Shown here piece by piece: positions 1 to 29,700 of a DNA stretch of 35,000 nt. The stretch covers positions 1 to 35,000 of the forward strand of contig JAHJRB010000015.1 in the NCBI GenBank assembly GCA_018831025.1. Direction: 5' to 3'. Positions within the stretch are counted from its first letter, which is position 1; every line of letters starts with the position of its first letter. Under the pieces are notes generated by a model. It ran no database searches. It was not told where the DNA came from and was given only the letters and a program-made list of their open reading frames with translations. Origin of the DNA: Nanobdellota archaeon. Lineage in GTDB: Archaea > Nanobdellota > Nanobdellia > SCGC-AAA011-G17 > ARS1403. The position numbers were made by a program, and so were the translations under genes.

Positions 1-69
1 ATTTTATTAATTTTATTAGCTATTGTTATTTGGTTAGCGATTAAAAAGGTGATAGAAAATGCTTTCTAA
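1..69 (+). CDS. 3' end of a small hydrophobic (single TM helix) protein, truncated by the window edge
   Basis: Frame 1 reads ILLILLAIVIWLAIKKVIENAF* with the stop at 67-69. It resembles the helix plus short tail of the small pilin-like ORFs at 907-1053 and 2544-2732. Confidence 0.3.
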   Translation: MLLILLAIVIWLAIKKVIENAF

Positions 70-910
70 GAAAGGAGAGAGTGCCTCTTATATGGGAGGA
101 AAAACAACAGATATTATCTTAGCTTTAATAGCATTGAGTGTTATTGGATTAGTTCTTTTTGGGTTTTTTGGAAATAGTGATTTTTTTAGTGAATTAACTT
201 GTAAAGTAACTGTTTATATGGCAGACCAAACTGAGAAAGCGCCTATAATAAAATATACACCTTTTACTTTTCCTATTATTTGCTCTACTAAAGATAAAGT
301 TATTGAAGAAGATAATAAGGATAAAATCATGTGGGAAATTGCTGATTATATGAGGAAATGCTGGAGCATGTGGGGAGAAGGAAATTTAAATCCTGCTGGT
401 AAAAATGTTTGGTTTAATGATGAGTTTAAATGTTTCAAATGCTATAGGTTGAGTTTTAATGATTTTGAAGGGATTATAGATGCAAATGAATGGGATGAAT
501 TCTTTAAGGATCCTGAGAAAAGAGTTAAAGGAAGCGACCTAGACTTTTATAATTATTTTAAAGGGAATATATTACTTGGAACTGATGATGAAGGCAATTT
601 TGTTATTGAGAAAGATAAGTATTATGGTGTTACTTTTGTTGAGCATATAGAGAAAGATAGATGGGGAAGATATGTAGCAACAGCGACTACGGGGGCGACC
701 GTTGTTGGAGGAGCATGTATGTTTGTTGTTGGTGTTGGATGGATTGCTAGTCCTCTTTGTGTTTTAGGTGGAGGCGCATTAGGAGCCGGAGCTGCAGCTA
801 TTGAACAGTTTATTGATAAGATTTCTAGTTTGATAGTTGGAGAAGATAAAGATATAATAATGCTTTCAAGATATGAAGATGTTAAAAAATGCGGAGGATA
901 TATTGAATGA
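59..910 (+). CDS. hypothetical membrane protein, Cys-rich ectodomain, Gly/Ala-rich C-terminal TM segments
   Basis: 283-aa ORF with an AGGTGAT Shine-Dalgarno 8 nt upstream. It has an N-terminal TM helix (DIILALIALSVIGLVLFGFF) and a C-terminal hydrophobic G/A-rich region. I recognise no family. Confidence 0.6.
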   Translation: MLSKKGESASYMGGKTTDIILALIALSVIGLVLFGFFGNSDFFSELTCKVTVYMADQTEKAPIIKYTPFTFPIICSTKDKVIEEDNKDKIMWEIADYMRKCWSMWGEGNLNPAGKNVWFNDEFKCFKCYRLSFNDFEGIIDANEWDEFFKDPEKRVKGSDLDFYNYFKGNILLGTDDEGNFVIEKDKYYGVTFVEHIEKDRWGRYVATATTGATVVGGACMFVVGVGWIASPLCVLGGGALGAGAAAIEQFIDKISSLIVGEDKDIIMLSRYEDVKKCGGYIE

Positions 911-1053
911 AAAAAGGAGAATTTGCCTTGAGTAATGTTGCGGGATTATTGCTTGTTTTATTAGCGGCTCTTGTTTTAATATTGTTTATCTATCTTCTTA
1001 GAGATAAAATTAAAGAGATGATAGATATTATGAAAAGCATTTTTGGATTATAA
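907..1053 (+). CDS. small (48 aa) class III signal peptide / pilin-like protein
   Basis: Absent from the ORF track. Its ATG overlaps the upstream TGA (ATGA) and a GGAGGAT SD lies upstream. Translation: MKKGEFALSNVAGLLLVLLAALVLILFIYLLRDKIKEMIDIMKSIFGL*. Confidence 0.5.
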   Translation: MKKGEFALSNVAGLLLVLLAALVLILFIYLLRDKIKEMIDIMKSIFGL

Positions 1054-1055: not shown

Positions 1056-2063
1056 ATGGCAGAAGGAGAAGGGATGGGTATTGGAACTTTGGTTAATGCT
1101 ATTGTGATTTTTTTAGTTATAATCGGGGTTATTTGGGTTCATGGAGAAATGTTCGGGGGTTCTAGGAAAGCGTTAGAAGAGTTTTTTGATTTAGGTGAAA
1201 TAAAAAATGTTGCTCAGGATGTTTTTAGTACAGAAAGAGATATTACTTTAAATACTACTCATATAATTGCGGATAAAATTGTAGAATTATTAATGGTGAA
1301 GGAGAATGATTGTTTGATCAATTTAGATTTTAGCGGTTTTGATGATAGTTTTGTTGTTGAGTTTAAAGAAAGTACAACTGGAAATAGTTTGCTGGAAGTT
1401 TCTAAAGGAAGAGTTGCTGTGCAAAGAAGATTGACAAATAATGTATTTTTTATGAATTCAAGAAATTTTAAAATTAAAGAATTTGATAAAATTGAAATTA
1501 ATGGGATAGAATACCCTGTAAAAATTGGGGATAAAATAATCTTATTTAAAGATATAAATTCAAATTTTTATTTCTATGCGGGAAATGAATTGGCAGCAAT
1601 TAGAAATACTAAATTGAGTTGTGGACAGAAAAAAGTATCTGATCAATTGGCTCAACAGAGAATCGAGGGAGGAATAGGTTCAGTAGAATATTATCTTTCT
1701 ATGATGCAAGTTTATTACAATGATGGAAAATATGATAAGGTGCTTGATGCTTATTATTCTCTTTATAGAGGTTCTGAACAAGGAACTTTGGTTGTTAGTG
1801 CTGAACAATTGGAAAAGATGAATACATTATGGATAAATAGTGTTAATCAAATGGGTTCTGGTGCGCGGTATTTATGTGAAGATAAAAATGGAGTTTTTAG
1901 ATGCTTTGATTTTTCATATTATGAATATACAACCAATCTTAGAAATGGTATACTACAAAATTGTAAAGATGAAATTTTAATCCCGGTATCTATTAAGTAT
2001 GGTAATTTGGAAGATTGTGAAAAAGAAAGATTAACTAAGATAGGAATTTTACCAAGAATTTGA
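1056..2063 (+). CDS. hypothetical N-terminally anchored protein
   Basis: 335-aa ORF starting 2 nt after the previous stop, with an N-terminal TM helix (GTLVNAIVIFLVIIGVIWV). I recognise no domain. Confidence 0.6.
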   Translation: MAEGEGMGIGTLVNAIVIFLVIIGVIWVHGEMFGGSRKALEEFFDLGEIKNVAQDVFSTERDITLNTTHIIADKIVELLMVKENDCLINLDFSGFDDSFVVEFKESTTGNSLLEVSKGRVAVQRRLTNNVFFMNSRNFKIKEFDKIEINGIEYPVKIGDKIILFKDINSNFYFYAGNELAAIRNTKLSCGQKKVSDQLAQQRIEGGIGSVEYYLSMMQVYYNDGKYDKVLDAYYSLYRGSEQGTLVVSAEQLEKMNTLWINSVNQMGSGARYLCEDKNGVFRCFDFSYYEYTTNLRNGILQNCKDEILIPVSIKYGNLEDCEKERLTKIGILPRI

Positions 2064-2148
2064 TAAAAAGCATTTATAGAAAACTTTAAATATAAACCAA
2101 ATAATTTAAATAGTAATTAATATTATTAAAATCCAAAGGTGATAATAA

Positions 2149-2529
2149 ATGAATAAAAGAGGTCAAGGTGGACTTTCTATGGATACCATAGTTGTGGCTA
2201 TTATTGCGATTATTGTTTTATTATTAATTGTTACTTTCTTTACTGGTGGTTTAGGAACTATCGGTCAAAAGATTACTGATGTATTTCAAAAAGGGACAGC
2301 AGGATATGATATAGATTTGGCTGTAAAGAACTGTGAAGATTATTGTGCTAGAGCTCAGAGATTGACAGGAGATCCCGCATTGAGAGCAAGTGCTTATTGT
2401 ACACAAACTTTCGATATTGATTTGAATAGGGATAACCAACTTTTGGATGCTGAAAAAGGTCTCAAATGCTATGGTGCTAAATCTGTCCCGGGTGTTAGTT
2501 GCTCTGGAGTAACCTGCCCTGCTACTTAA
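2149..2529 (+). CDS. type IV pilin-like protein (class III signal peptide), Cys-rich; candidate major subunit
   Basis: N-terminus MNKRGQGGLSMDTIVVAIIAIIVLLLIV. An AGGTGAT SD lies 7 nt upstream, TATA-like elements lie at 2071-2095, and a T-run follows the stop. Confidence 0.7.
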   Translation: MNKRGQGGLSMDTIVVAIIAIIVLLLIVTFFTGGLGTIGQKITDVFQKGTAGYDIDLAVKNCEDYCARAQRLTGDPALRASAYCTQTFDIDLNRDNQLLDAEKGLKCYGAKSVPGVSCSGVTCPAT

Positions 2530-2542
2530 TTTTTTTTCTTTT
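2530..2542 (+). terminator. oligo-T tract after the candidate major pilin gene (possible partial terminator)
   Basis: The sequence ttttttttcttttc starts directly after the TAA at 2527-2529. Archaeal terminators are oligo-T runs. Confidence 0.35.
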
Positions 2543-2543
2543 C

Positions 2544-2732
2544 ATGAATAAAAAAGGTTTGGCTTGGGGTATGATTGTAACTGCCATAATTGCGATACTT
2601 GTCTTAGTTATTCTTGTTTGGATTTTTAGAGAACAATTAACTGGAATTTCTGAACAGTTTTTAAACGTTATAAAACAAACTAGTGCAAGTTCTAAGGATT
2701 TTAGTGAAGAAATTAAAAATTTAAATCCTTAG
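2544..2732 (+). CDS. small (62 aa) pilin-like protein (class III signal peptide)
   Basis: This uses the internal ATG of track ORF 2499-2732 and gives MNKKGLAWGMIVTAIIAILVLVILVWIF. The 5' extension from 2499 overlaps the preceding gene and lacks the motif. Confidence 0.6.
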   Translation: MNKKGLAWGMIVTAIIAILVLVILVWIFREQLTGISEQFLNVIKQTSASSKDFSEEIKNLNP

Positions 2733-2780
2733 TAAAATAAAGAAAAATTATATAAAGTTTCTAAGTTAAGATTGTTGAGT

Positions 2781-3266
2781 ATGGGAGACGTTAGTTTAAA
2801 TTATACTGTTACTTTAATTTTAACTTTAATAGCAATTCTTACTTTGGGGGGATGTGTGTATAAAATTTATTATCCTAATTGTGATCCTCAAGCAGTTGAT
2901 AAGTTTAATGAGTTTACTACTTTATTTGAAAGTTGTTTAAATGGTAATTGCGGAGAATTTAATTTTCAAGACATTCCTGAAGGGCATAAGATTGTTTTAA
3001 AATCAAGCGGAACTATTACAGATATAAGATTGAATTGTGGAGGGAGATTTAGTAGTAAACTCAACCAAGCTTATAATGTTGGTTTGTGTACTTATCGTTT
3101 TGGGAAAGATTCATCGGAAAATATAGGAGAGTTTGATATCAGCTATAGTTTAATAGATAGTTTATATTCTTTTAATGGAAATATTAAAATTAGAAAAACC
3201 GAAAATAAAATTTGTATGGATAAAAAAGAAGTTGAGTATAGGTCGGTTATACCGACGCTGAGGTAA
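2781..3266 (+). CDS. hypothetical N-terminally anchored, Cys-containing protein
   Basis: ATG at 2781 (the track starts at TTG 2772). A TATA-like TTATATAA at 2748-2755 lies about 30 nt upstream. TM helix YTVTLILTLIAILTLGG. Confidence 0.55.
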   Translation: MGDVSLNYTVTLILTLIAILTLGGCVYKIYYPNCDPQAVDKFNEFTTLFESCLNGNCGEFNFQDIPEGHKIVLKSSGTITDIRLNCGGRFSSKLNQAYNVGLCTYRFGKDSSENIGEFDISYSLIDSLYSFNGNIKIRKTENKICMDKKEVEYRSVIPTLR

Positions 3267-3267
3267 T

Positions 3268-3648
3268 ATGAATAAAAGAGGTCAAAGTTTAATACAAGTT
3301 GAGACTATAGAATATGTTTTATTGGTTGCTATAGCAATAATGTTGTTTTTTTTATTAAATACAGCAATTGGTATGGAGAAATTTAATGGATTAAGAGCAG
3401 ATGATTTGGCTTTGACTATAAATTCTGTATTTATTCCAAAAGGGAATGTTGCGATTGATTATGAAATGGGAGAAGAAGGCAGGGAGATTAAATTTTATGA
3501 GGGAATTGTTGGAACTTATATTGACGACCCCATTAGAGAAAGTAAAAATTTAGTTTTAGTAGATAGTAATTATATTTTTGAAAGAAGAAATATGAATACT
3601 AATTTGTTGGAAATTACAAAGCAAGGGGATAAGGTTACTGTAAGATGA
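3268..3648 (+). CDS. type IV pilin-like protein (class III signal peptide)
   Basis: N-terminus MNKRGQSLIQVETIEYVLLVAIAIMLFFLL with a GAGGT SD upstream. The first 18 nt are identical to those of the gene at 2149. Confidence 0.7.
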   Translation: MNKRGQSLIQVETIEYVLLVAIAIMLFFLLNTAIGMEKFNGLRADDLALTINSVFIPKGNVAIDYEMGEEGREIKFYEGIVGTYIDDPIRESKNLVLVDSNYIFERRNMNTNLLEITKQGDKVTVR

Positions 3649-4058
3649 ATAAAAAAGGAGGGAGTACATTAGCTAGTAAATCTGGGTTTTATATTATATT
3701 TTTAATACTCTTTACCTTTGCTGTTTTGTACTCTGTTAAATTTATAGAAGATAAAGAAGTAAGAAGAGTTGATTTTTTTCAGTTAGAAGATAGTGTTGTT
3801 ATTAATAGAGTTATTAGTTGCGTATCTAATGATAATTTTGGAGAAATAGATGTAAATAAATTTAATGAAATTGAATTGAGAAAATGTTTGACTAACACTA
3901 ATTTTAATTTTATTATAATGTTGGATACGGTGGATGATCAAAAAATAGTTTCCATTGGAGATGTTGGTCTTGATTATAGGAGCATAGGCAGGTATGTCTT
4001 AGTTGATAATAAAAAAGCTAGAATAAGAGCGGGGTATAGTAAAAATGTTCCCGAGTGA
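3645..4058 (+). CDS. type IV pilin-like protein (class III signal peptide)
   Basis: N-terminus MNKKGGSTLASKSGFYIIFLILFTFAVLY. ATGA overlap with the upstream stop. Confidence 0.7.
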   Translation: MNKKGGSTLASKSGFYIIFLILFTFAVLYSVKFIEDKEVRRVDFFQLEDSVVINRVISCVSNDNFGEIDVNKFNEIELRKCLTNTNFNFIIMLDTVDDQKIVSIGDVGLDYRSIGRYVLVDNKKARIRAGYSKNVPE

Positions 4059-4476
4059 TGTGAAGGATTTAATTACAGCATTTGTTTTGATAGTGATATT
4101 AGTAGCAGGAAGTGCTATTTATCAGACGCTTTATAAAACGGATGAAGTCTTAAAAGAAATTAAAATTAATGATGAACAAGATTTATTTTCTTTGAATTAT
4201 TTGAAAACTAAAATTAGTGATGGAAGTTTAATTAGCGAGTTAATCATTGAATCTGAAAATAATGATGGTGCGTTTGAAACCTTAAAAGATGGAACTGAAG
4301 AGATAATGAATTTTGCATTTGTTGAAGAATATAGCGTAATTATTCTATATCCAACTATTGAAAAAAAATTCGGAGAAGATAATTTTGAAAGATATACTGA
4401 GTTAAAGTTATTTGATAAAGATGAAGAAATGATTTTAGTGAAGGTAGGAGTAAGATTTAAGGAGGGATGGGTGTGA
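4045..4476 (+). CDS. hypothetical N-terminally anchored protein
   Basis: 143-aa ORF overlapping the upstream gene by 14 nt. TM helix LITAFVLIVILVAGSAIY. Confidence 0.55.
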   Translation: MFPSDVKDLITAFVLIVILVAGSAIYQTLYKTDEVLKEIKINDEQDLFSLNYLKTKISDGSLISELIIESENNDGAFETLKDGTEEIMNFAFVEEYSVIILYPTIEKKFGEDNFERYTELKLFDKDEEMILVKVGVRFKEGWV

Positions 4477-5705
4477 ATAAAAAAGGTGTTTATTTTGCAA
4501 GTTTTAGTATTTTATTAGTTATCTTTATGATTATAGGTTACAGTTTTGTTAATGATAGAAAAGAAGCTGAGGCAGGGATAGATGATTTGGGAAAATTTAG
4601 CGTTGGTTTAATTACTTCTAATTTTAATGTTGAGAAATTAAGATTTGAAATTGAAGAGGCGATAAAAATTTCTAAAGAATTAGCTTTAAAAAATATTAAA
4701 GATAATGCGGGGGTTTATGATAAGATTAATTGTGGATTAAATGGGGATTACATAGTTTTAGGAACTGGATGTGATTATTTAAATCCTGAAGAGAATTTTT
4801 ATCATTATTTCAACGATAGTTTTGACAGAACCTTAAAAGGAATAGATCCAAAGTTTAACTCTGATGAATTTAATATTGAAATTTTAAATAATGGTTTAGA
4901 TGTAAAAGGGACTAAAAGAGTTTCATTAGATATTACTAAGGAGATTAAGTCTACAACTAAAAAAACTGTAACTGAAAAAGACTCTTTTAAATTTGATGAA
5001 AAATTAAATTCTGAAATATTGTCTTATATTGAAAGATATAGTCAAGAGTATAATGTACCTGAAGATTTGGTTAAAGCAGTTATAATTAAAGAATCTGGAG
5101 GAAATATTAATGCTGTTGGTTCCAATCCGGATAGTACTGATTATGGATTAATGCAGATAAATAGTAAAGCACATCCTGATTGGTTTGATGGGAGTAGGGG
5201 ATGTAGAGTTAATGAAGATGTTAGTTGTAATATTAAAGCAGGTACTGAAATATTAAAATCAGGTTATGATCGATTTAAGGATGGTAAGACATATACATGC
5301 ACTGGTAAGACTTATACTAACTGGGAAGCTGCTTTGAGAGCTTATAATGGATGGGGATGCTTAAACTTGGATTATGTTGAGAGCGTTTTATCTTTACTAG
5401 GTGAAGAGATTTCTACTTATATTACCCAAGATACTGAAGTTTATAGAGAGAACGTAGGTTATATCGAACTAGATTTAGATTATCATGAAGAGGTAGGCTA
5501 TAATTTTAGAAATATTAATGATGCTATTTTAAGGGGGAGAACTATTAAAGATTGTGTTAATAATGGAGAAGATGTCTTTGTTTGTGCTAGTAGAGAAAAT
5601 GACCTTTTTTTCATTTTTAATGCAAGGATTGAAGGAAACGTGATTAAATTTGATGTTGAAGAGCTAGAAACTGGGGATATAATTAAATTTGCGCTAAATA
5701 TATAA
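4467..5705 (+). CDS. pilin-like N-terminus fused to a lytic transglycosylase (SLT, lysozyme-like) domain
   Basis: The N-terminus (M)GVNKKGVYFASFSILLVIFMII gives MNKKG if GTG 4473 is the start (GTGA overlap, GGAGGGAT SD). SLT motifs are E-S (KESGGN, 5091-5096), GLMQI (about 5145-5159) and AYNGWG (about 5339-5356). Confidence 0.8.
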   Translation: MGVNKKGVYFASFSILLVIFMIIGYSFVNDRKEAEAGIDDLGKFSVGLITSNFNVEKLRFEIEEAIKISKELALKNIKDNAGVYDKINCGLNGDYIVLGTGCDYLNPEENFYHYFNDSFDRTLKGIDPKFNSDEFNIEILNNGLDVKGTKRVSLDITKEIKSTTKKTVTEKDSFKFDEKLNSEILSYIERYSQEYNVPEDLVKAVIIKESGGNINAVGSNPDSTDYGLMQINSKAHPDWFDGSRGCRVNEDVSCNIKAGTEILKSGYDRFKDGKTYTCTGKTYTNWEAALRAYNGWGCLNLDYVESVLSLLGEEISTYITQDTEVYRENVGYIELDLDYHEEVGYNFRNINDAILRGRTIKDCVNNGEDVFVCASRENDLFFIFNARIEGNVIKFDVEELETGDIIKFALNI

Positions 5706-5720
5706 AAGAATTACAATAAT

Positions 5721-5729
5721 TTTTTATAC
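5721..5729 (+). promoter_or_regulatory. TATA box for the RPA-like gene
   Basis: TTTTTATAC lies about 27 nt upstream of ATG 5752 with no SD between them, implying a leaderless or very short leader mRNA. Confidence 0.45.
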
Positions 5730-5751
5730 TACATCTTAATTCTTAGTTATT

Positions 5752-7548: not shown

Positions 7549-7827
7549 ATGGTAGGTAATTTACCAATAAAAAAGTGGAGAGCTGGTTCTATAGAAGGAG
7601 TTGTTTGGTCTAACAAAAGAAATATCGAACGAGATGGGGAGAAAATGGAAGTTGAATTTAAAACAGTAACTTTGAGAAGGAGTTGGAAGGATAGAGACCA
7701 AAACATTTGGAGAGATGAGAAATTAAATTTAAGAAAACAGGACATTCCAAAATTGATGGTTATCCTGAATAAAATGCAGGAAGAACTATTTTTGAGTCAA
7801 AGCGAGGGAGGCGGTGATGATGAGTGA
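7549..7827 (+). CDS. small basic protein with an acidic C-terminal tail; possible PC4/YdbC-like ssDNA-binding protein
   Basis: ATG 7549 lies 7 nt after a GGAGGTG SD (the track starts at GTG 7540). The sequence has alternating beta-like segments ([33 protein letters not shown]), then a helix, then the tail SEGGGDDE. It overlaps the radA start. Confidence 0.6.
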
Positions 7828-10261
7828 AGATAAATTAGAGAAATTACCTGGAGTTGGTGCAGCTACTGCAGAAAAATTAACCCTTGCTGGTTTTGATAAT
7901 TTAATGGCGATTGCTGTTGCTAGTCCTGGTGAATTAGTTGAAGCTGCAGGAGTAACCGAACCTACAGCAAGGAAAATAATTAATGCTGCTAGGGATAAAT
8001 TAAAAATGGGATTTGAAAGCGGAGAAGACTTGCTTAAAAAAAGAGAAGAGATAATTAAGATTAGTACTGGAAGCAAGGCTTTCGATGAATTATTAGGGGG
8101 GGGAATTGAAACAGGAGCAATAACTGAAGCTTACGGTGCATATGGTAGTGGAAAAACTACCTTGGGGCATCAATTATCGGTTAATGTTCAACTACCCATC
8201 GCGGAAGGCGGAGCAGAAGGAATGGCTGTTTGGATTGATTCTGAAGGAACTATAAGACCAGAATATATTAAAAAAATAGCGGAAGCAAAAGGATTAGATG
8301 CGAGCAAAATCTTAAAAAATTTTAGAGGAGTTAGGGCATTTAATTCTGACCATCAGATGTTGCTATCTGAAAAAATTGAAGACTTGATAAAAGACGGATT
8401 GCCAGTTAAATTGTTGATTATTGATTCTTTGATGGGACATTTTAGAAGTGAATTCAGTGGAAGAGGGATGTTGGCTGATAGACAACAAAAACTGAATAAA
8501 CATATGCATAGTTTGCTTAAGTTAGCGCATACCCATAGCATTGCAGTCTATATTACTAATCAAGTAATGGCTAGACCGGATATGTTTTTTGGAGATCCTA
8601 CCGAGGCTATTGGTGGACATGTGTTGGCTCATGCATGCGTAACAGGCGATACATTAATACAGCTTTCGGATGGGGCTATATTGCCAATAGAGAAATTAAA
8701 AGGACCAACTAATTTGATTTCTTTGAATTTAAATGGAGATTTAAAAAATATAAATTCTTTTTGCGATTATGGCTCTATTAGGGATAACATAAGTAAAATA
8801 TTTGAGATTCATACAAATGGGATTATTCAAGCGTCCCCTTTGCATAAATTTTTTAGATTAAATGGATTTTCTATTGAAGAAGTAGAAGCTAAGGAGATAA
8901 AGGTGGGGGATTTTATAGCCTGTCTTAATAACATAAATATTGATGGGGTTGAACAAAGGCTTCCAGAAATAAATGCTAAAGAGATGATAAGTGTTACTAA
9001 ACAAGGTAGCGATTTTATTAAGTATAAACTAGAAGAACTTGATTTGAGTAGGGAAGATGTTTGCAAGAATTTGAATATAAACCCAAGACAGTTACGCAGA
9101 GTGTTGAATCAGGAATATGCTACCGATGTTAATAATATAAATTTGCTAGTCAAGCAAGGTGTTAATGAAAATATCTATGAATTTATAGAACCACATACAT
9201 CTAATAAGTTTAGGGAAATTACAATCCCAAAAACGTTGAATTTAGAATTATCCCAGATTTTGGGTTATTTCATTGGTGATGGGAATATTGATGAATTTGG
9301 CATAAGATTTAAGGATGAAAGGATAGAAGTTTTAGAGGTCTATAATAAACTTTTTAAAAAGTTGTTTAATTTAAACGGGAAGATTTGTAAAGTAAAAGAT
9401 AAGAATTGCTACAATTTAGATATTAATAGTATTGCCGTAAAAAACTTATTTACTGAGATTTTAGATGATGTTTTTTTATACATTTCAAGATCTACAAAAA
9501 AACATATTGCAGCTTTTATTAGAGGTTTTATGGATGCGGAGGGGTATGTTAGTAAAAAAAGAGCAAGAATAACAATTGGACAAAAGAATAATTTGACCTT
9601 GAGATATTTGCAGATGTTACTTTTGAGATTAGGCATTAGAAGTAATTTAAGAAAAACTAATGGAAAAAAGATTTTTAGCTATCTAATTTTTGATGGGCAA
9701 TATTTTTTAAGATTTGCAAAGACTATTGGGGTCACTGCGAGTGATAAGAGAAAACTTCTTGAAAAGCAAATAAAATATTGTGAAAATGATGTAATTTTTA
9801 ATAGAGACTTATTGCCCGTTGAAAGAAAGTTTATTTGGGGTCTTATTAAAGAGATGGGTTTGTCTCCCTCTAAACATATTAAACCTAGACCCTCTGGCTA
9901 TAGATTCTTGAGCAGAGACAATGCAAGAAAGTTGTTGGTTACATTAGAAGGCATAAATGTAAATAATAATAAAATTAAAAATAACCTTAATTTTTTGAAA
10001 TCGTTAATTGATGGAGATGTAAGACTTGAAGAAGTAAAAAGAATTGACATTAAGAAAAATAATGAACCTTTGTATGATATTAGTGTACCTGTTGTAGAGA
10101 ATTATATTGCAAATGGTTTTGTTGTGCATAACTCAACATACAGAGTTTATTTGAGACGAGGCAAAAAAGGAACTAGGGTTGCTAAATTAGTTGATGCTCC
10201 CGCATTGCCGGAAAGCGAGGCTATCTTTATAGTGACGGAAGAGGGAATTAAAGACGTATAA
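7814..10261 (+). CDS. radA: DNA repair and recombination protein RadA, interrupted by an intein
   Basis: It has an N-terminal HhH ([15 protein letters not shown]), Walker [10 protein letters not shown] and Walker [16 protein letters not shown]...GGHVLAHA precedes the intein and [30 protein letters not shown] follows it. The exteins sum to 316 aa. Confidence 0.95.
8636..10132 (+). mobile_element. 499-aa intein with a LAGLIDADG homing endonuclease domain
   Basis: It starts with Cys ([13 protein letters not shown]) and ends VVHN, followed by +1 Ser. Block B is SPLH. The LAGLIDADG motifs are [10 protein letters not shown] and [12 protein letters not shown]. Block F is [16 protein letters not shown]. 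Confidence 0.9.
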
Positions 10262-11436: not shown

Positions 11437-11991
11437 ATGGTTAATGAAATTGAAGAAAAATTAAAAGGAATGAGTAAAGAAGAGATTCAAGAGTTAGTAA
11501 AAAAACAGTGTTTGTTCTGCAATATTGTTAATGGGAATATAGAATCTTACAAAGTTTATGAAGATGATAATGTTATGGGTGTTTTAGATATTAATCCAGC
11601 TAATAAAGGACATGTTATACTTTTTCCTAAAGAACATTTACAATTCTTGAATGATTTAGATGAGAAATTATTAGGACATTTATTTGATGTTGTAAATAAG
11701 CTAAGCAATAAAATGATTGATAGATTAAAAGCGAGCGGGATTAATATTTATATTGCAAGCGGACAAGGTGCCGGACAGAATTTACCGCATATAGCTGTGC
11801 ATGTTATTCCAAGATATGAAAATGATAAAATTGCTTTTGGCTGGAATCCTAAAAAATTAAACAAAAATGATTTTGAAAATATCACTAAGGAATTAAAAAC
11901 AAATAAAATTTCTAAAATTGAAGTTAAGAAAGTTAAAAAAATAAAACCTAAAGTTGTAAAGGCAAAGAAATTTGAAGAAAGAGTGCCTTAA
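11437..11991 (+). CDS. HIT-family (histidine triad) nucleotide hydrolase with a Lys-rich C-terminal tail
   Basis: CLFCNIV, DINPANKGHVILFPKEH and the histidine triad HIAVHVIPR are present. Confidence 0.85.
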   Translation: MVNEIEEKLKGMSKEEIQELVKKQCLFCNIVNGNIESYKVYEDDNVMGVLDINPANKGHVILFPKEHLQFLNDLDEKLLGHLFDVVNKLSNKMIDRLKASGINIYIASGQGAGQNLPHIAVHVIPRYENDKIAFGWNPKKLNKNDFENITKELKTNKISKIEVKKVKKIKPKVVKAKKFEERVP

Positions 11992-12866
11992 AGGAAATAA
12001 GAAATTATATTTCCAAAAATTAAAGAAATTATTGTTGCAATTAAAAATGTTGGGGTGAATATTATCCCTTCTTTTATCTCTACTTTCTGAATTTTATTCT
12101 TTTTGAGCAAGGATATCTGCTCTTTATTTAACCCATACATAGGAATTTTTAAAAGTAGTTTGCTGTTTTTGTAAATGTTTTTTGTTAACCAATCACCCTC
12201 TATTAACTCAGAAGGTTTTATGGTTTTGTACATGCAACTTTTTTCCACAGACTTTATGTAAATCCAAAGATACAAGAATAATAAAATAGCGATAGCAATA
12301 AAAAAGAGACTTATTCTTGATAAAAAATTATTTACAATTATTGCAAGCACTATTAACAATATCGAAAGAATTAAAATTATTTTTCTTGGATTCTTTGTTT
12401 TCTTCAAATAAAGATTATACTCTCTTAAAAAATCTTTTTTATGTTTTAGAGATATATAGATTGTGAAAATTAAACTATATATCATCCCTATGATTAAAAT
12501 ATTTAAGAAGATTATTGCCGGGAAATAAATATTATCTAATCTTGGAGAGAAAATGTTTAATAATTGCTTTGGATATGTTGCAAATACTACTGATAATGCC
12601 ATTAGTAATTTAGCATCTCCTCCCCCCCATTGTTTAGAGTAAAACATAATATTGCCGATTAAATAAAAAATTACAAGATTAATTAATGCTATTTTTATAT
12701 AAAAGAAGTCATTATAGGTTATTGAGTATAAAGCTCTTAATGATAATCCAGAGGCTATTAATGAGAAATTCAGCCAGTCTGGTATTTCTGTTGTTTTTTT
12801 ATCAGAGTATGTTGCAATTAATAATCCTGCTAATCCTAAAATTAAAAGTATTAAATCTATAACCAT
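11988..12866 (-). CDS. A24-family archaeal prepilin/preflagellin peptidase (PibD/FlaK/EppA-like)
   Basis: The first catalytic Asp context is ATYSDKKTTEIPDW and the second is GGGDAKLLMAL (GxGD). The protein is polytopic, with an extra soluble segment before the last TM helix. Confidence 0.8.
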   Translation of the reverse strand: MVIDLILLILGLAGLLIATYSDKKTTEIPDWLNFSLIASGLSLRALYSITYNDFFYIKIALINLVIFYLIGNIMFYSKQWGGGDAKLLMALSVVFATYPKQLLNIFSPRLDNIYFPAIIFLNILIIGMIYSLIFTIYISLKHKKDFLREYNLYLKKTKNPRKIILILSILLIVLAIIVNNFLSRISLFFIAIAILLFLYLWIYIKSVEKSCMYKTIKPSELIEGDWLTKNIYKNSKLLLKIPMYGLNKEQISLLKKNKIQKVEIKEGIIFTPTFLIATIISLIFGNIISYFL

Positions 12867-12900
12867 ATCTTTAGAAGATATTTGTTATTATTTAAAAAAC

Positions 12901-12908
12901 TTTATATA
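12901..12908 (+). promoter_or_regulatory. TATA box (AAAAACTTTATATA context)
   Basis: It lies about 30 nt upstream of ATG 12934. Confidence 0.45.
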
Positions 12909-12933
12909 CTTCTTCTTATTTAATATTTTTAAT

Positions 12934-13212
12934 ATGGGAGGGTTATTCATGGATCATAAGATAAAGGTCATAGTTGGTTTAAGTTTTGTTGTATTAGTTT
13001 TGTTTGCTTATATTGGTGCGAATGCTTATGCCAACCAAAAGCAAGTAATTTATAGACAAGGGGTACAAGACGGAGCTTTATTACAGCAACAAGATATTGT
13101 TAGGACCGTTGCTACTACAGGATATGTGGCTTTTAATGTTGTTGGTCAAGATGGACAACCTGTTAATTTAATATTGGCTCCAGTACAACAACAGCAACAA
13201 GCGACTCAATAA
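12934..13212 (+). CDS. small membrane-anchored protein with a Gln-rich C-terminus
   Basis: 92-aa ORF with TM helix VIVGLSFVVLVLFAYIGA and C-terminus PVQQQQQATQ. Confidence 0.5.
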   Translation: MGGLFMDHKIKVIVGLSFVVLVLFAYIGANAYANQKQVIYRQGVQDGALLQQQDIVRTVATTGYVAFNVVGQDGQPVNLILAPVQQQQQATQ

Positions 13213-13229
13213 TAATTCTTTTATTTTTT

Positions 13230-13745
13230 TTATGATAAAAGCATAATTACAGAGTTTAACATCCTACATATAAATGAACCTGCGAACCAGGTGAAGAATA
13301 TTAATCCTATTGTTGGAAGAAAACCTATTAAGTAATTTGTTATTCTAAAATGTAGCATTACCCCAATTATTAGAGATAATGGGATAGGTATTGTTACCAT
13401 CCCCCATGTAAAACCTGCTAAAAATACTATTGGAATGTTAACAACTTTGAATAGAGAATTTACTGAGGAGGTATTTAACATTACTACCCAGAAAATCCCT
13501 ATTGCTAAACTAATTAGCACTGTTATTGGAGTTGAAAGTCCTCCTGTGGATCCTAATATGATGTCCCCGCTAATATTTAAGAATGATGCGAGCAGCGCTA
13601 ACATTAATACAGCTTCCTTTAACATATTTGCTATCCAGGATATTATTACAATGGTTATCAATACACTTAACCAGTTTTCTATAAAATACTTTAATAACTC
13701 GAAGAATACTCTATAAAACAATTCTACACAAATGTTTAAAGTCAT
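13230..13745 (-). CDS. hypothetical polytopic membrane protein
   Basis: 171-aa ORF with 4-5 hydrophobic helices. I recognise no family. Confidence 0.5.
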   Translation of the reverse strand: MTLNICVELFYRVFFELLKYFIENWLSVLITIVIISWIANMLKEAVLMLALLASFLNISGDIILGSTGGLSTPITVLISLAIGIFWVVMLNTSSVNSLFKVVNIPIVFLAGFTWGMVTIPIPLSLIIGVMLHFRITNYLIGFLPTIGLIFFTWFAGSFICRMLNSVIMLLS

Positions 13746-13788
13746 TTATAGTTATAAAGCATAACACCTTAATATTTATTTCGTAACA

Positions 13789-13796
13789 TTTATATA
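13789..13796 (+). promoter_or_regulatory. TATA box for the 13821-18265 cluster
   Basis: TTTATATA lies about 28 nt upstream of ATG 13821. Confidence 0.45.
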
Positions 13797-13820
13797 TTTT
13801 AGAAAGTTAATTTTATAATT

Positions 13821-14984
13821 ATGTTGAAGAAAAGAGGTCAGGCTGGTAATATAGCAACTTTGATTTCTTTAATTGCTCTTTTTATGATAATCTATATTTT
13901 ATTACTGCCGCAGGAAGCAAGGGATGAATTGTTGAATAGAGAAGATGGAATTCCTCAACATATGACGGATGGGATTTCTAGCCAAATTTTATTTTCAAAA
14001 GAAATTGGGGAAGTAAGTCCTTTAAAACAAAGTAGAGGGACTATTCATACTATTTCAGGGGTTAATTTATTTAGTAATGTTGAAAGTGAGATTATAACAT
14101 TGGCTAATAACATTTTAGTTAATAAAGGAATAATAAGTGAAAATTCTCAAAAATTAGTTTTTTATTTAGAATATCCTGAAGATGTTGAGAAATCTGAGTT
14201 ATATCTAATTATTGATAATGCTGTTGGTAATTTAGTTGTTAGTTTGAATGGTTATGAAATTTTTAATAAAGCTGTTAAGAGCAATAGTCAAGAACTTTTA
14301 GAAATGCCGGTCGGTTATTTGAGAGAAACAAATACAATTGAATTAAGTTCTGCAGCTCCTTTTTTGAGGAGTAGTATGCATGAGTTAAAATCTGTTAGAC
14401 TAAGAAAACAAGTTGAGATTAAAAACAAACAATCAACAAGAATACTTTCAATTCCTGCAAGTGAAATAAAGGATTTAGAAAAAGCTATTTTGAGTTTTTC
14501 AGTATATTGCAGCAGAAATGAAGATCAATTGTTGAATCTAAAACTAAATGGAAAATTAGTTTATAGTGATGTTCCTTTCTGTAACTTACAAAGAACTGAA
14601 ATAGAGATAGATTCTTCATTTATTAATAGTGGAGTAAATGAATTAATTCTTGAGAGTGAAGGGGATTATACATTAGAGCAGGTAGAATGGGAAAGTTTGT
14701 TGAGGGGGGAGCGAGCTAGCGAATATGCATTCACAATTAGCGATGATGATTATAATGATGTTAGAAGAGGATTGAAAGATGTATTTGTTGTATTTGATTT
14801 TGCTCTTAGCGATGAAAGAAAGATAATGGAGTTTTATGTTAATGATAAAAAATTTGATATTGATACTAGTGAAAATTCTTACTTTATGACTATTTCTGAC
14901 TACTTAGAAAAAGGTGGAAACTTAATCAGGTTAAGACCAAAAAACAGCTTTGAAATTATTGAAATGAGAGTAGAGCTGGAGTAA
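13821..14984 (+). CDS. large class III signal peptide (pilin-like N-terminus) surface protein
   Basis: N-terminus MLKKRGQAGNIATLISLIALFMIIYILL. The 387-aa body has no domain that I recognise. Confidence 0.7.
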   Translation: MLKKRGQAGNIATLISLIALFMIIYILLLPQEARDELLNREDGIPQHMTDGISSQILFSKEIGEVSPLKQSRGTIHTISGVNLFSNVESEIITLANNILVNKGIISENSQKLVFYLEYPEDVEKSELYLIIDNAVGNLVVSLNGYEIFNKAVKSNSQELLEMPVGYLRETNTIELSSAAPFLRSSMHELKSVRLRKQVEIKNKQSTRILSIPASEIKDLEKAILSFSVYCSRNEDQLLNLKLNGKLVYSDVPFCNLQRTEIEIDSSFINSGVNELILESEGDYTLEQVEWESLLRGERASEYAFTISDDDYNDVRRGLKDVFVVFDFALSDERKIMEFYVNDKKFDIDTSENSYFMTISDYLEKGGNLIRLRPKNSFEIIEMRVELE

Positions 14985-14986
14985 AA

Positions 14987-16327
14987 ATGGCTGAAAGTGT
15001 AGGCGGGGGGAATCCAAAGGGAGTTAAACAAATTCTCGTAGAAGGAGCTAAGGAAGGGGTTCAGAAAAGAGTTGAGAATAAAGTTGCTGGAAGTGGATCT
15101 AGTAGTCCATCTGTTAGTAGCGTTAGTAGCGGGGGTGCAAGCAAGTTTCTAATTTTTTTGATTTTTTTAATTATTGGAGGTTATTTTCTTTGGCCAACTG
15201 TTACTGATTGTATGGAAAGCGGTTTTTGTAAAACAAGAATAATAGAACCGGTTAAGACTGCTTTTAAACCAGTTGGAGAAACGTTTAGCTTTATTGGCAA
15301 GCAGGCAGGAGAAAGTGCTGCTATAATCCGTGGGGAGAAGACTTTTAGTTGGGAGGGAGATGTTGAAGAAAGAAAAAAAGCAGGCATTTGGTTTGAAGGA
15401 GGAAAAACTTATGGAATAACTTTATCTGAGACTGAGTCTGGAGTTGTTGAAACTTTAAGCGGAGAGTTTGGAGCAGTTATTGATGTTGTTGTTGGAAAAA
15501 TTGATGAGAACTTAAAAGAAATAGAAGCGAATATTGGTTGCAGTTTAGAAGAACATGAAGGAATTATAAGAGGAAATCCAGAAGGAAAATTAATTTTAGA
15601 TAATCCCTATCCTGAAGATGAGAGAACATATAGAGGAAGTGATTGTGTTTTTACCGAAGATCCAAATGTTTTAATAAAGAAAAAAGTGGATAAAGATCAG
15701 GTTTATTTTTTGAGTAAAGTTATTTTTAATTTAAATTATTCCTTAAATCCTGAAGTTTATTTGCCTGTGTTTGTTATACCGAAGAAGGAGATTTATGATG
15801 AATTTAGAGGAAGACCAGATGAAGCTTTTAAAGAACTAGCATTTGGACAATATAAAGAGTATAGTTCAGATGTAAGATCTGGGGGGATTAAATCAACTAT
15901 GATTTATATGGCCAATGTGGGAGTTGTTATGAGACTTGTTAATCAACCACTTGGGCTAAATGTAGATCAAATTTTCGGAGTACAATTCAGAAATAAAGAT
16001 ATAAAAAATAAAGCTAGTTTTAAGGGATTTGTTTTTACACTTCCAGATGGTCTAAATATTGGGGGGAGTGCAAAAGTTAGTGGAGGGGATGTTTGTGATT
16101 ACTTTGAACCTGTTGGTACAAGGAGTTATAAATTTAAAGAAGAGTTCTTTGATAGAATAAGCAAACAGTTGAATACGATAGATGGAGAGACAGACTTGTT
16201 CCTATGTAAAGTTGATATTGATAATGCATTTTCAGAAGCTTCTGAAGAATTGGCTAATCTTGGAGATATTGAAGGTAAGCTAAGTTATGACTATACTATC
16301 AGTGAAGAAGTTACCATAAGTAATTAG
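14987..16327 (+). CDS. hypothetical membrane-anchored protein (Ser-rich linker, one TM helix, large ectodomain)
   Basis: 446-aa ORF starting 2 nt after the upstream stop. It has a SGSSSPSVSSVSSGG linker, then the helix FLIFLIFLIIGGYFLW, and the C-terminal motif KLSYDYTISEEVTIS. Confidence 0.6.
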   Translation: MAESVGGGNPKGVKQILVEGAKEGVQKRVENKVAGSGSSSPSVSSVSSGGASKFLIFLIFLIIGGYFLWPTVTDCMESGFCKTRIIEPVKTAFKPVGETFSFIGKQAGESAAIIRGEKTFSWEGDVEERKKAGIWFEGGKTYGITLSETESGVVETLSGEFGAVIDVVVGKIDENLKEIEANIGCSLEEHEGIIRGNPEGKLILDNPYPEDERTYRGSDCVFTEDPNVLIKKKVDKDQVYFLSKVIFNLNYSLNPEVYLPVFVIPKKEIYDEFRGRPDEAFKELAFGQYKEYSSDVRSGGIKSTMIYMANVGVVMRLVNQPLGLNVDQIFGVQFRNKDIKNKASFKGFVFTLPDGLNIGGSAKVSGGDVCDYFEPVGTRSYKFKEEFFDRISKQLNTIDGETDLFLCKVDIDNAFSEASEELANLGDIEGKLSYDYTISEEVTISN

Positions 16328-16333
16328 AAAGTT

Positions 16334-16342
16334 TTTTATATA
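16334..16342 (+). promoter_or_regulatory. TATA box (GAAAGTTTTTTATATA context)
   Basis: It lies about 27 nt upstream of ATG 16366. Confidence 0.45.
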
Positions 16343-16365
16343 TTCTATAGTATATTAAAGTCTAT

Positions 16366-17316
16366 ATGTTCAAGTATAAACCTTTGATGGTTCTATTAGC
16401 ATTGTTATTTGTAGTTGGTGCGAGTTGCGATAGGAGTACTTTTTTTGGAAGTAAATCTGAAACTACTGAAGAAGATATTTTTTCTGGAATTCAAGGATTA
16501 GAACTTAGTTTTATGGAAGGAGCACCACCAAATGAGGTTTATCAAGATACCAGTTTTGATATTTTTGTTGAATTACATAATCAAAATGCATTAGATGTTA
16601 AACGTGGAACAATTAAGTTATCTATTCCTTATCTTTTTGAAGTTAGTGATAAAACAAAAACAATAGATACCATGATGGGGAAGGAAACTTATCCTGGTGG
16701 AGAGACTGAGATTATTGAATGGACCGGAGTTAAAGTTAAAGGTACAACTGTTAGGAAAGATACTAGGCAGACTGCAAATGTACAGGTTTGTTATGCGGGG
16801 GATTTGGAAGCTCAGCCAATGGTTTGTGTTAGACCAAGACCTGGAAGTGATGGAATTATAGAAGGAGAATGTAATATTGGTAAAAAAAGTTTATCTGGTG
16901 GACAAGGGGCGCCGATTGCAGTTACTTCTGTTACGGAAACTGTTTTGAAAGAAAGTGATAATACTAATACAATGGTGTTTAGATTTGAAGTGGAGGATGT
17001 TGGTGGAGGAAAAGTTATTGATGTTGGAGAAGTTAATGATTGTAGTATTAGTGCGAAGGATAAAACTAAAGCAGAAATTATTATAGAAAAAGTAACTTGG
17101 TTGGGAAGTGAAACAGGATTTGAGTGTGAAGGTGGAAAAGAAGAGAAAGATAAAGTAATAATGTTGAATGGAAAAGGAGTCTTTAAGTGTACTAGTCCTG
17201 CTATTTCAAATGATGAACATTATTCGTTACCTTTATATATTAAAATGAATTATGGATATGTAAAAAGTATAAATAAAGGCTTTACACTAAAAAAAGATAT
17301 ATTTTATGCTGATTAA
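16366..17316 (+). CDS. secreted/lipobox-like surface protein, paralog A
   Basis: The signal peptide MFKYKPLMVLLALLFVVGASC ends in Cys. The protein shares GL-x-[LI]-x-F-[ML]-E-[GD]-APP, CY...CV.P and AP[IV]xVTS motifs with the next gene. Confidence 0.65.
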   Translation: MFKYKPLMVLLALLFVVGASCDRSTFFGSKSETTEEDIFSGIQGLELSFMEGAPPNEVYQDTSFDIFVELHNQNALDVKRGTIKLSIPYLFEVSDKTKTIDTMMGKETYPGGETEIIEWTGVKVKGTTVRKDTRQTANVQVCYAGDLEAQPMVCVRPRPGSDGIIEGECNIGKKSLSGGQGAPIAVTSVTETVLKESDNTNTMVFRFEVEDVGGGKVIDVGEVNDCSISAKDKTKAEIIIEKVTWLGSETGFECEGGKEEKDKVIMLNGKGVFKCTSPAISNDEHYSLPLYIKMNYGYVKSINKGFTLKKDIFYAD

Positions 17317-17332
17317 AAAAGGAGGTAAAAAA

Positions 17333-18265
17333 ATGAGGAAATATGCTCTAGGAGTTGTACTTCTAATTGTTGTTTTATTAGTTAGTGGTCAAGAGGGTTG
17401 TCAAACTGGTGGAGAAACTGTTGGTACTGGACCTTATGTTGGAGGTAATGATGGTTTGAGCATTGTTTTTTTAGAAGATGCTCCTCCTGCAAGCGGTAAT
17501 TTTCAAGGCGAATCTATTCCATTAGAAGTTGAATTAACTAATAATGGAGAGAAAGAGATTGCAACAGGTAGTGCTTATATTAAACTGATTGGAGCTATAA
17601 CTAGTAATTCTTTTACTACAACTAAAACTACTGCTACAAATACTGGTGCAATATCTGCGATAAGAGATGCTAGCGATGTTTCGGATAATGATTTTGTTAA
17701 TTTAGGAACTGCAACTTTAAATGATGCTATTGGTGCAAGTTGGAGTCCACTTATCAAGGCGCAACTTTGTTATCCTTATGAAACTAATATACAGATAGAT
17801 AACCTTTGTGTGCCAGGAGATAACAGAGAAACAGGAACTAAAGAATGTGAGATAGATAGTGCTAAAAATTTAGTTGCAAAAGGAGACGTAAGTGCTGCTC
17901 CTGTTCAAGTAACAAGCATAGTTGAAAGCAGAGCTAGCGATGGAATAAGAATAACAATGGATATAGAAAACCAAGGGAATGGCTATGTTTTAGACCCAAG
18001 TAAAACTTGTGATTCTGTAACTGGTGTTGTTGACAGAGAAGACTATGTGGTTGTTGTAAATATACCTGGAGACGTTTGGACATGCAACTATAAAGATGCT
18101 GCAGCAAAGACAGTTGAGCTTAGAGATAACAGTGGAAGACTGAGATGTAGTAAATCCATAGGTGGAACTGGTAGGGCTTATAATGACAGATTCGTAGCAA
18201 CTTTAAGTTACAAGTATGTAGATACAGTTTCTAAATCTATTGTGATAGAAACCAATAGTAATTAA
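17333..18265 (+). CDS. secreted surface protein, paralog B
   Basis: ATG 17333 lies 9 nt after a GGAGGT SD (the track starts at 17306). The signal is MRKYALGVVLLIVVLLVSGQEGC. It is collinear with 16366-17316, for example KECEID...AAPVQVTSIVE...MDIENQGNGYVLD. Confidence 0.65.
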   Translation: MRKYALGVVLLIVVLLVSGQEGCQTGGETVGTGPYVGGNDGLSIVFLEDAPPASGNFQGESIPLEVELTNNGEKEIATGSAYIKLIGAITSNSFTTTKTTATNTGAISAIRDASDVSDNDFVNLGTATLNDAIGASWSPLIKAQLCYPYETNIQIDNLCVPGDNRETGTKECEIDSAKNLVAKGDVSAAPVQVTSIVESRASDGIRITMDIENQGNGYVLDPSKTCDSVTGVVDREDYVVVVNIPGDVWTCNYKDAAAKTVELRDNSGRLRCSKSIGGTGRAYNDRFVATLSYKYVDTVSKSIVIETNSN

Positions 18266-23931: not shown

Positions 23932-24252
23932 ATGGATATTAATGAGGCGTTTAAAAGAAGAATTGAGGAAATAAAAGACTTTGGAGAAGAAGATGTTGCT
24001 AAGGAAAAATTTGCTGAATTGTGGTTGTTGTTTAGTAAAACTAATAAAGAATTTTTAAAAAATGAAGTTATTGAAAATATTCAAGACTTAAGAGCAAAGA
24101 TTGAAATTACTGGAATTAAAAACAAACTTGAAGAAGCAGAAAAAAAAGAAAGAAAAATAAAAAAAGTAGATAACTTTAATGATCTTTGTAATCTTATGAA
24201 ATATTCTAAATTTGATGAGGCCATAAAGAAGTTTAATGAAAGAAGAAAATAA
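23932..24252 (+). CDS. hypothetical charged/coiled-coil protein
   Basis: 106-aa K/E-rich ORF. I recognise no family. Confidence 0.4.
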   Translation: MDINEAFKRRIEEIKDFGEEDVAKEKFAELWLLFSKTNKEFLKNEVIENIQDLRAKIEITGIKNKLEEAEKKERKIKKVDNFNDLCNLMKYSKFDEAIKKFNERRK

Positions 24253-29418: not shown

Positions 29419-29700
29419 ATGGAAACCAAGTCAATTAATTATGTTCTCTTTATTGTAGTTTTTGTTTTAGCTCTAAATTTGGTTTATCCTTTAGGGAGAG
29501 CGTATGGTAAATTAACCTTTGGGGATCTTGGATGCGAAATTAATGGAGCTTATGTTGATGATGCAAATTTATGCTGTCATGAAATGGGGAGATTTCCGGG
29601 TTGTTTTGATAATAAATGCGATTCAGATAATTATCAAATAGTTGCTAATAAACAAATGTTTAGATATTGCAAAGCGAGCGGTTATGATGTTAGATATTAA
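29419..29700 (+). CDS. small secreted Cys-rich protein
   Basis: 93-aa ORF with the signal/anchor YVLFIVVFVLALNLVYPLG and 7 Cys in the mature part. It overlaps the GH3 gene start. Confidence 0.5.
   Translation: METKSINYVLFIVVFVLALNLVYPLGRAYGKLTFGDLGCEINGAYVDDANLCCHEMGRFPGCFDNKCDSDNYQIVANKQMFRYCKASGYDVRY

Follow-up and report, generated by a model that had tools for sequence, protein, structure and literature searches.

The 35,000-nt stretch analysed here (the window: positions 1 to 35,000 of contig JAHJRB010000015.1 in assembly GCA_018831025.1, from a Nanobdellota archaeon) carries at 4473..5705 on the forward strand a gene for a scaffold protein with a built-in lytic transglycosylase (SLT) domain of glycoside hydrolase family 23 (GH23). 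We have found that this gene closes a 12-gene type IV pilus-like operon, composed of an ATPase gene, a platform gene and ten genes for small proteins, and that the SLT domain, as judged from alignments, lies nested within a conserved carrier of two parts. The arrangement suggests that a murein-less archaeon of the DPANN group may use pilus machinery to breach bacterial cells. On balance we lean towards reading the protein as a modular pilin-like subunit that would be processed by a prepilin peptidase of the A24 family, handled by the pilus machine and used to present an active peptidoglycan-cleaving module to bacterial cells.

The SLT domain and its carrier protein

An SLT domain with an intact active site had been claimed in a first-pass annotation made from the letters of the stretch. 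A hidden Markov model search bears out the domain call: residues 187-295 score 58.5 bits with Pfam SLT (PF01464; E=5.9e-16), where the gathering score is 21.3, far more than chance would give. The whole nested SLT/GH23 domain extends over 4992..5411 (residues ∼176-315) and has four invariant cysteines. The catalytic motif VIIKESGGN lies at 5079-5105, with catalytic Glu209 (GAA) at 5091-5093 and the following Ser at 5094-5096. Motifs II and III follow in order, namely G227-L-M229-Q230 (GLMQ, 5145-5156, within GLMQI at 5145-5159) and A292-Y293-N294-G295 (AYNG, 5340-5351). The positions given earlier for the first two motifs were exact; AYNGWG is present as reported, at 5340-5357, one base away from the ‘about 5339-5356’ of the first-pass annotation.

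The motifs are strongly conserved. In an alignment of 11 full-length homologues (33-55% identity, all metagenomic and all annotated as ‘hypothetical’) every sequence keeps E209-S210, G227/M229/Q230, Y293-N294-G295 and seven cysteines. Relatives of the protein bear the label Nanoarchaeota or Woesearchaeota; the one full-length homologue that is named, at 38% identity, carries the former. Across carriers of all kinds, 61 related domains have the Glu, the Gln of GLMQ and Y-N-G without exception, and the Ser and Met in nearly every case. It appears that E, S, G-x-M-Q and Y-N-G of the SLT domain are under purifying selection.

A single-sequence search against PDB sequences gave no match; E. coli MltC and goose-type lysozyme were reached by the family profile alone, and the similarity is remote (E about 1e-6). 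In this proper alignment the earlier assignment of the catalytic residue stands: E209 coincides with the MltC catalytic Glu, which is replaced by Q in 4cfo, an inactive-mutant entry, and also with Glu73 of goose-type lysozyme. No second carboxylate is invariant, and the position of goose-lysozyme Asp97 is Asn or Cys in the SLT family, which mildly favours transglycosylase rather than hydrolase chemistry. The best NCBIfam match of the protein is the type III secretion enzyme IagB (E=1.3e-5, far below the cut-off).

The AlphaFold model of the full-length protein has a mean predicted local distance difference test score (pLDDT) of 77 and a predicted template-modelling score (pTM) of 0.50. The 50 PDB matches listed in a Foldseek search comprise only g-type lysozyme, MltE, MltF, Slt, LtgA and phi6 lysin; most have a probability of 0.9-1.0, ∼145-150 residues are aligned, and the E-values, near 0.03, are weak. 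The structure prediction thus agrees with the domain call, the model matching the g-type lysozyme/MltE/MltF/Slt superfamily alone.

The sequences on both sides of the domain had been described as unknown. They are in fact the two halves, N- and C-terminal, of a single conserved scaffold protein, which also exists without SLT. An exhaustive profile search returned 4,161 proteins at E<=1e-3 and 12 at E<=1e-30, some short proteins matching the ends of the query alone. Proteins of 242-284 aa align to residues 1 to ∼165 and ∼328 to 412, leaving one clean gap over the SLT domain. The N-half (4554..4961) is predicted to form a long helix and a beta-sheet (pLDDT ∼85-95) and has invariant C89 and C102; the C-half (5451..5702) is alpha/beta (pLDDT ∼90-95) and ends in ...IKFALNI; both halves align with the SLT-less relatives.

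Orthologous loci (designated by L numbers) show the operon position of the SLT-less scaffold. In L086 and L087, the latter labelled Woesearchaeota, an SLT-less scaffold of 242-245 aa is the last operon gene, directly before RPA. Gene sizes along the L087 operon (279-48-344-123-64-169-120-133-152-242 aa) follow closely those of the source genome (283-48-335-126-62-164-126-137-143-410 aa), and L086 has the gene order of the source operon with less exact sizes. No other gene with an SLT Pfam hit is present in the L086 and L087 loci. In L016 an SLT-less scaffold again stands before RPA, and the SLT domain sits on a separate 347-aa pilin-like gene in the middle of the operon. We regard the domain as a nested module because the SLT-less scaffold occupies the identical operon position and aligns around the gap left by SLT. 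Of the ‘fusion’ proposed earlier, the joining of SLT to a class III-type signal is supported by sequence and synteny; the simple form is not, and a nested insertion takes its place. An SLT-less scaffold is modelled as a single compact body (pTM 0.74) in which a beta-sheet comes after a long N-terminal helix.

A distant relative of 463 aa from the exhaustive profile search, P0056, has the scaffold and a degenerate SLT-sized insert in which the catalytic Glu is lost (‘AAYGSNF’ versus ‘xxxESxx’); it may be a pseudo-enzyme variant.

The pilus-like operon, its signals and its surroundings

The N-terminus of the SLT protein is of the pilin type, as is that of most of its operon partners. A class III-type signal (4473..4553, forward strand) consists of MNKKG and a 22-residue hydrophobic helix (4488-4553) that is also predicted as a helix in the model; the short basic start and the hydrophobic stretch, MNKKG then VYFASFSILLVIFMIIGYSFV, are conserved in homologues, and the N-terminal NKKGVYFASFSILLVIFMII is as it was first given. 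Cleavage is predicted after the Gly codon at 4485-4487. All ten consecutive forward-strand open reading frames (ORFs) from 59 to 5705 open with a hydrophobic helix, and seven of the ten products have a K/R-G motif at positions 3-6 (MNKRGQ..., MNKKG..., MKKG... or SKKG...). The motif is therefore common to the SLT protein and six of the nine other operon proteins, in agreement with the pilin-type N-terminus claimed earlier. Conserved cysteines in an even number would agree with an extracellular location.

The ORF of the SLT gene runs from 4467 to 5705 (412 aa), and an ORF scan found no competing ORF of at least 60 aa on either strand. Translation probably starts at GTG 4473 (410 aa) instead of ATG 4467 (412 aa). 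An AGGAGG ribosome-binding-like motif, read from the sequence at 4460..4465, is spaced 7 nt from the GTG and merely 1 nt from the ATG; the preceding stop codon shares bases with the GTG (GTGA); and the product then opens with MNKKG, as the homologues do. Public gene calls of both 410 aa and 412 aa exist, and the former also speaks for the GTG.

The two genes expected for a pilus motor lie upstream of the window. On the parent contig (L088; five mismatches to the window over 15.7 kb) there is a gene for a 750-aa ATPase of the T2SSE family, followed by a 697-aa platform gene that ends 75 bp before the window start. Together with a Peptidase_A24 gene nearby, these support the operon context that the first-pass annotation had claimed. 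The ATPase-platform order is likewise found in L001, L005, L086 and L087; the orthologous L001 ATPase is FlaI/TadA-like and the L001 platform protein has ∼9 hydrophobic segments. The ATPase also weakly matches the bindosome ATPase BasE (E=2.8e-15, far below the cut-off), and for the platform protein there is neither an NCBIfam match nor a precomputed Pfam hit. The conserved order is ATPase, platform, ten small proteins with SLT last, RPA, YdjM, RadA, EF-1beta and A24, and this synteny holds in relatives down to 33% identity. At L088 1..1052, ∼4.5 kb 5′ of window position 1, a gene of IS605 OrfB/TnpB type with a Cas12f1-like TNB domain lies directly upstream of the pilus ATPase gene.

The prepilin/preflagellin peptidase gene (Peptidase_A24, FlaK/PibD type) is at 11988..12866 on the reverse strand, ∼6 kb downstream of the SLT gene. 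It matches PF01478 with E=2.4e-12 (47.7 bits versus a cut-off of 26.5) and also FlaK_Arch with E=1.7e-14, below that model's cut-off. The gene is syntenic in L001, L004, L016, L086 and L088, and its product is presumed to be the processing enzyme of the operon signals. Right after it a second cluster of predicted surface proteins was observed (13821..18265, forward strand). Its products are a 387-aa protein whose MLKKRGQ start and hydrophobic helix make a further class III-type N-terminus, a 446-aa protein with a single transmembrane segment and two proteins of ∼317 aa with a signal and a Cys (lipobox-like) at the N-terminus; none of them has a Pfam or NCBIfam match.

All the other small operon genes are on the forward strand. 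The first gene in the window (59..910), which follows the platform gene, encodes a 283-aa protein with MLSKKG, a hydrophobic helix and eight Cys; orthologues are in matching position in L001, L005, L087 and L088, and BLAST relatives occur in 14 loci. It is followed by a 48-aa protein (MKKGEFALSNVAG...; 907..1053) with a K-G motif and a hydrophobic helix. This ORF is below the default ORF size cut-off, and all orthologous operons keep counterparts of 48-54 aa, placed between genes of ∼280 aa and ∼340 aa. Next come a 335-aa protein with an N-terminal hydrophobic helix, six Cys and no family match (1056..2063), and a 126-aa pilin-like protein with MNKRGQ, a hydrophobic helix and six Cys (2149..2529). 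The 62-aa product of 2544..2732, with MNKKG and a hydrophobic helix, matches Pfam Flp1_like (PF16982) at E=7e-6, below the gathering score. Its orthologues match equally weakly, and the protein is a candidate for the major pilin. Downstream are a 164-aa protein with an N-terminal hydrophobic helix and seven Cys (2772..3266), a second 126-aa pilin-like protein with MNKRGQ and a hydrophobic helix (3268..3648), a 137-aa pilin-like protein with MNKKG and a hydrophobic helix, whose start overlaps the preceding stop (3645..4058), and a 143-aa protein with an N-terminal hydrophobic helix (4045..4476), whose stop codon at 4474-4476 overlaps the GTG of the SLT gene. Since several genes overlap start-to-stop, translational coupling within the operon is suggested. 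In 5706..5751, just behind the SLT gene, we read a T-run / ‘TTTTTTATA’ ∼25-30 nt ahead of the RPA start codon; this could be an archaeal terminator of the pilus operon plus a TATA-like promoter element of RPA.

The association of SLT with pilus genes is not confined to this contig. In a survey of SLT domains with one genome per species, the best matches to the domain described here were almost all from DPANN archaea and fell into two classes: giant proteins of 1,000-3,000 aa with Sec-type signals, and small proteins of 240-490 aa with ‘N[KR][KR]GD + hydrophobic’ N-termini. The small class was observed in ∼13 loci, where SLT has a carrier other than the scaffold, namely a small K/R-G protein. 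In most of these loci the gene follows a pilus ATPase or platform gene at a distance of a few kb, and an A24 peptidase is often close by. Small pilin-type SLT proteins thus recur in many DPANN pilus operons, and the protein described here is not the single fusion that it had seemed to be. Rough neighbour-joining trees of the SLT domains and of the scaffold suggest that carriers are interleaved, as are SLT-plus and SLT-minus scaffolds; the branches are long and have no support values, and the trees establish no bacterial donor. They fit one old insertion with losses as well as several gains.

One locus, L075, is labelled as a Patescibacteria group bacterium and was considered as a bacterial parallel. 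It was rejected as almost certainly a misbinned DPANN contig, because it carries archaeal genes (RPA, RadA, aEF-1beta) and KRGQ-type pilins in DPANN synteny, next to an A24 peptidase and a 425-aa class III-type SLT protein.

The archaeal origin of the window itself, as first assigned, is confirmed by its genes for RadA with an intein, RPA, aIF2-alpha, GINS51, PCNA, aMBF1 and archaeal signal peptidase I. The RadA gene (7814..10261, forward strand) is interrupted by a LAGLIDADG intein; in L086 (1..2500 and 12822..16787) the RadA gene has two inteins and the pilus ATPase gene has one. Further downstream on the forward strand we observed a gene for a PgaC/IcaA-like glycosyltransferase of family GT2, similar to poly-N-acetylglucosamine (poly-GlcNAc) synthases (27077..28291), and one for an enzyme with a GH3 N-domain only and an N-terminal transmembrane helix, whose best NCBIfam match, below the cut-off, is to NagZ-type beta-N-acetylhexosaminidase (29642..30778). 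Bacterial NagZ trims GlcNAc from lytic-transglycosylase products. The possibility that the two genes, ∼22-25 kb downstream, serve muropeptide salvage was dropped, as nothing ties them to the operon; a link to SLT is speculative. Upstream of the GT2 gene, two adjacent ORFs of 491 aa and 464 aa (24236..27041, forward strand) show weak C-terminal ‘Chlor_Arch_YYY’ matches, and the 464-aa ORF encodes a polytopic membrane protein.

Proposed function and competing explanations

In the mechanism we favour, the preprotein would enter the membrane and the FlaK/PibD-type A24 peptidase would cut after MNKKG. The freed hydrophobic helix would allow the FlaI/TadA-type ATPase and the platform to load the subunit into a filament, or onto its tip or base, as membership in the operon leads us to infer; the filament itself would be built mainly of the 62-aa Flp-like pilin. 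The disulfide-rich extracellular SLT domain, with intact Glu-Ser, GLMQ and AYNG, would then cut the bonds between N-acetylmuramic acid and GlcNAc in the peptidoglycan of a touched bacterium, and the local breach of the wall could provide attachment, membrane access or nutrient release. The expectation of activity comes from homology. Archaea lack murein, and for this reason the target is presumably foreign. The SLT domain seems to behave like an effector, since the orthologous L086 and L087 operons keep the same ten genes with an SLT-less last one.

Several observations weigh against this reading. As far as we are aware, association with a bacterium has not been demonstrated for any DPANN archaeon, and the cultured examples known to us all have archaeal hosts; GH23 also includes enzymes for chitin-type substrates, so that murein is not the sole possible substrate. 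The pTM of 0.50 for the full-length model leaves the domain arrangement uncertain, and P0056, which has no catalytic Glu, indicates that not every member of the wider family needs catalysis. A pilin fold was sought for the scaffold by Foldseek: the SLT-less model gave chance-level PDB matches to SAS-6, XRCC4 and kinesin (template-modelling score ∼0.14), and neither a pilin nor another known fold emerged. Because the scaffold model matches no PDB fold, the label ‘pilin-like’ is drawn from the N-terminus and the operon context alone. A stronger version, in which a DPANN ‘drilling pilus’ carries the peptidoglycan-cleaving enzyme as an integral, probably tip-located subunit and breaches bacterial walls with it, is in our opinion possible rather than probable.

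Foreign peptidoglycan would still be the target if the protein were not a filament subunit at all but a surface-displayed or pseudopilus-dependent enzyme, with signal and machinery serving export or anchoring only, as they do in the Sulfolobus bindosome or a pseudopilus of type II secretion, an explanation that we find rather doubtful. It would account for a scaffold fold that is not recognisably pilin, for the weak BasE match of the ATPase, far below the cut-off, and for the bulk of a 45-kDa subunit beside a 62-aa major pilin, and PibD-type peptidases do process substrate-binding proteins besides pilins (PMC4858521). However, as in true pilus operons, a candidate major pilin of the Flp1-like type is encoded together with several small pilin-like proteins, and filament tips are known to accommodate bulky modular pilins (PMC8179133). 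The target could also differ, and chitin or chito-oligosaccharides, the envelope glycan of an archaeal host or pseudomurein may be named; we hold a substrate other than bacterial murein to be unlikely, given that all classical family-1 lytic-transglycosylase motifs checked are intact. Pseudomurein has beta-1,3 linkages and is insensitive to lysozyme-type enzymes, and the source of at least one family member is open-ocean Tara metagenomes, where few pseudomurein methanogens would be expected. What speaks for such a substrate, besides the chitin-active members of GH23 and the archaeal hosts of cultured DPANN, is that MltE binds chitopentaose (PDB 4hjy, among the fold matches) and that the window encodes the PgaC/IcaA-like GT2 and the membrane-anchored GH3 NagZ-like enzyme; GlcNAc polymers may matter to the source organism.

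A lytic transglycosylase inside a machine operon is the exact bacterial arrangement, and the best NCBIfam match of the protein, far below the cut-off, is to IagB. By analogy, the enzyme might do housekeeping work, opening the producer's own wall polymer for passage of the pilus in the manner of BfpH, VirB1, IagB and EtgA. This is very unlikely in an archaeon, which has no murein: the L086 and L087 operons retain all other genes and yet no SLT, the window ORFs that were scanned include no murein-synthesis gene, and SLT moves between carrier proteins across lineages, resembling an accessory module. Hardly any weight is given by us to a catalytically silent adhesin whose SLT fold would merely bind peptidoglycan or another glycan for attachment. 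The loss of the Glu in P0056 would suit it, and Castelle et al. suggest an attachment role for the giant DPANN SLT proteins (PMC8204110), but a Glu that is invariant and a Ser that is nearly so in 61 aligned domains are not expected if binding alone were selected.

Should the favoured reading hold, it would bear on a wider question. Hosts and attachment mechanisms are unknown for most Woesearchaeota, Pacearchaeota and Nanoarchaeota, and the giant SLT proteins hinted at bacteria without offering a delivery mechanism. An SLT domain that is a fixed part of a conserved pilus operon, either carried by a pilin-like protein or set within the last subunit, gives a concrete model that can be tested, and nature offers orthologous operons to compare, with SLT in this contig, L001 and L005 and without it in L086 and L087. 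A drilling pilus, if true, would be the first molecular device for physical episymbiosis or predation of an archaeon on a bacterium, and would point to bacteria as the long-sought hosts of many Woesearchaeota and Nanoarchaeota.

Comparison with known systems

Large ‘murein-like lytic transglycosylase’ proteins were described in Woesearchaeota and Pacearchaeota by Castelle et al. 2021 (PMC8204110) and Vigneron et al. 2022 (PMC9723730), and these papers as well as later surveys propose that bacterial walls are bound or degraded. That DPANN SLT domains are aimed at bacteria is already known as a general idea. The words pili, pilus and pilin are absent from these DPANN SLT papers (PMC8204110, PMC9723730 and the later surveys), a 2016 census of archaeal type IV pilus systems (PMC4858521) mentions neither transglycosylase nor lysozyme, and in the main text of a modular-pilin survey (PMC8179133) there is no mention of transglycosylases or of archaea. 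The impression that the context was uncharacterised is consistent with this: in the literature searched, no account was found of a pilin-linked archaeal SLT, nor of the pilin-type carrier, the nested architecture or the membership in a pilus operon.

The giant proteins (fam00969 in PMC8204110; PMC9723730) have a homologous GH23/SLT domain, and on a rough tree the DPANN domains interleave. They share with the SLT scaffold protein the kind of organism and the proposed target, bacterial peptidoglycan. The giants, however, have 1,000-3,000 aa, Sec-type signals and an SLT at the C-terminus, and pilus-operon genes are absent from the 10-kb flanks of most loci surveyed, whereas the SLT scaffold protein has 410 aa, a class III-type signal, an SLT nested in mid-protein and the place of the last pilus-operon gene, and is not of the giant fam00969 type.

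E. coli MltC, other family-1 enzymes and goose-type lysozyme align at the catalytic Glu, GLMQ and AYNG, and the helical fold is common to all. Compared with MltC and goose lysozyme, the SLT family has four conserved domain cysteines of its own and an ‘AYNGWGC’ variant of motif III.

Bacterial lytic transglycosylases linked to machines include IagB, IpgF and EtgA of type III secretion systems, VirB1 of type IV secretion systems, and BfpH and R64 PilT of type IV pili. These specialised enzymes likewise place a family-1 SLT inside a filament or secretion-machine operon. They are small, Sec-exported and periplasmic, and cut the producer's own sacculus. Unlike them, the protein described here has a murein-less archaeon as its producer and a pilin-type N-terminus, and orthologous operons do without SLT. 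Because archaea have no murein and orthologous operons lack the domain, it is unlikely that the SLT protein cuts the producer's own peptidoglycan for machine assembly.

The Sulfolobus bindosome is alike in that a non-pilin protein with an archaeal class III signal is processed by PibD and served by a type IV pilus-like ATPase and membrane protein (PMC4858521). It differs in displaying solute-binding proteins for uptake, with no glycan-cleaving enzyme and no multi-pilin operon.

Modular type IV pilins are known in bacteria: PilB and PilC of Streptococcus sanguinis, for example, carry a vWA module and a lectin module, respectively, and GspK has a domain inserted in the pilin fold (PMC8179133). 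The survey covers bacterial IPR012902 pilins with lectin, vWA and peptidase modules. The globular fold of the SLT carrier matches no solved pilin. The likeness lies in the plan: a class III signal and a hydrophobic helix form the carrier, an effector module is grafted or inserted, and the location is thought to be the tip. The SLT scaffold protein would extend the ‘modular pilin’ principle to archaea and, judging by the text of the survey (PMC8179133), to modules that cleave glycans.

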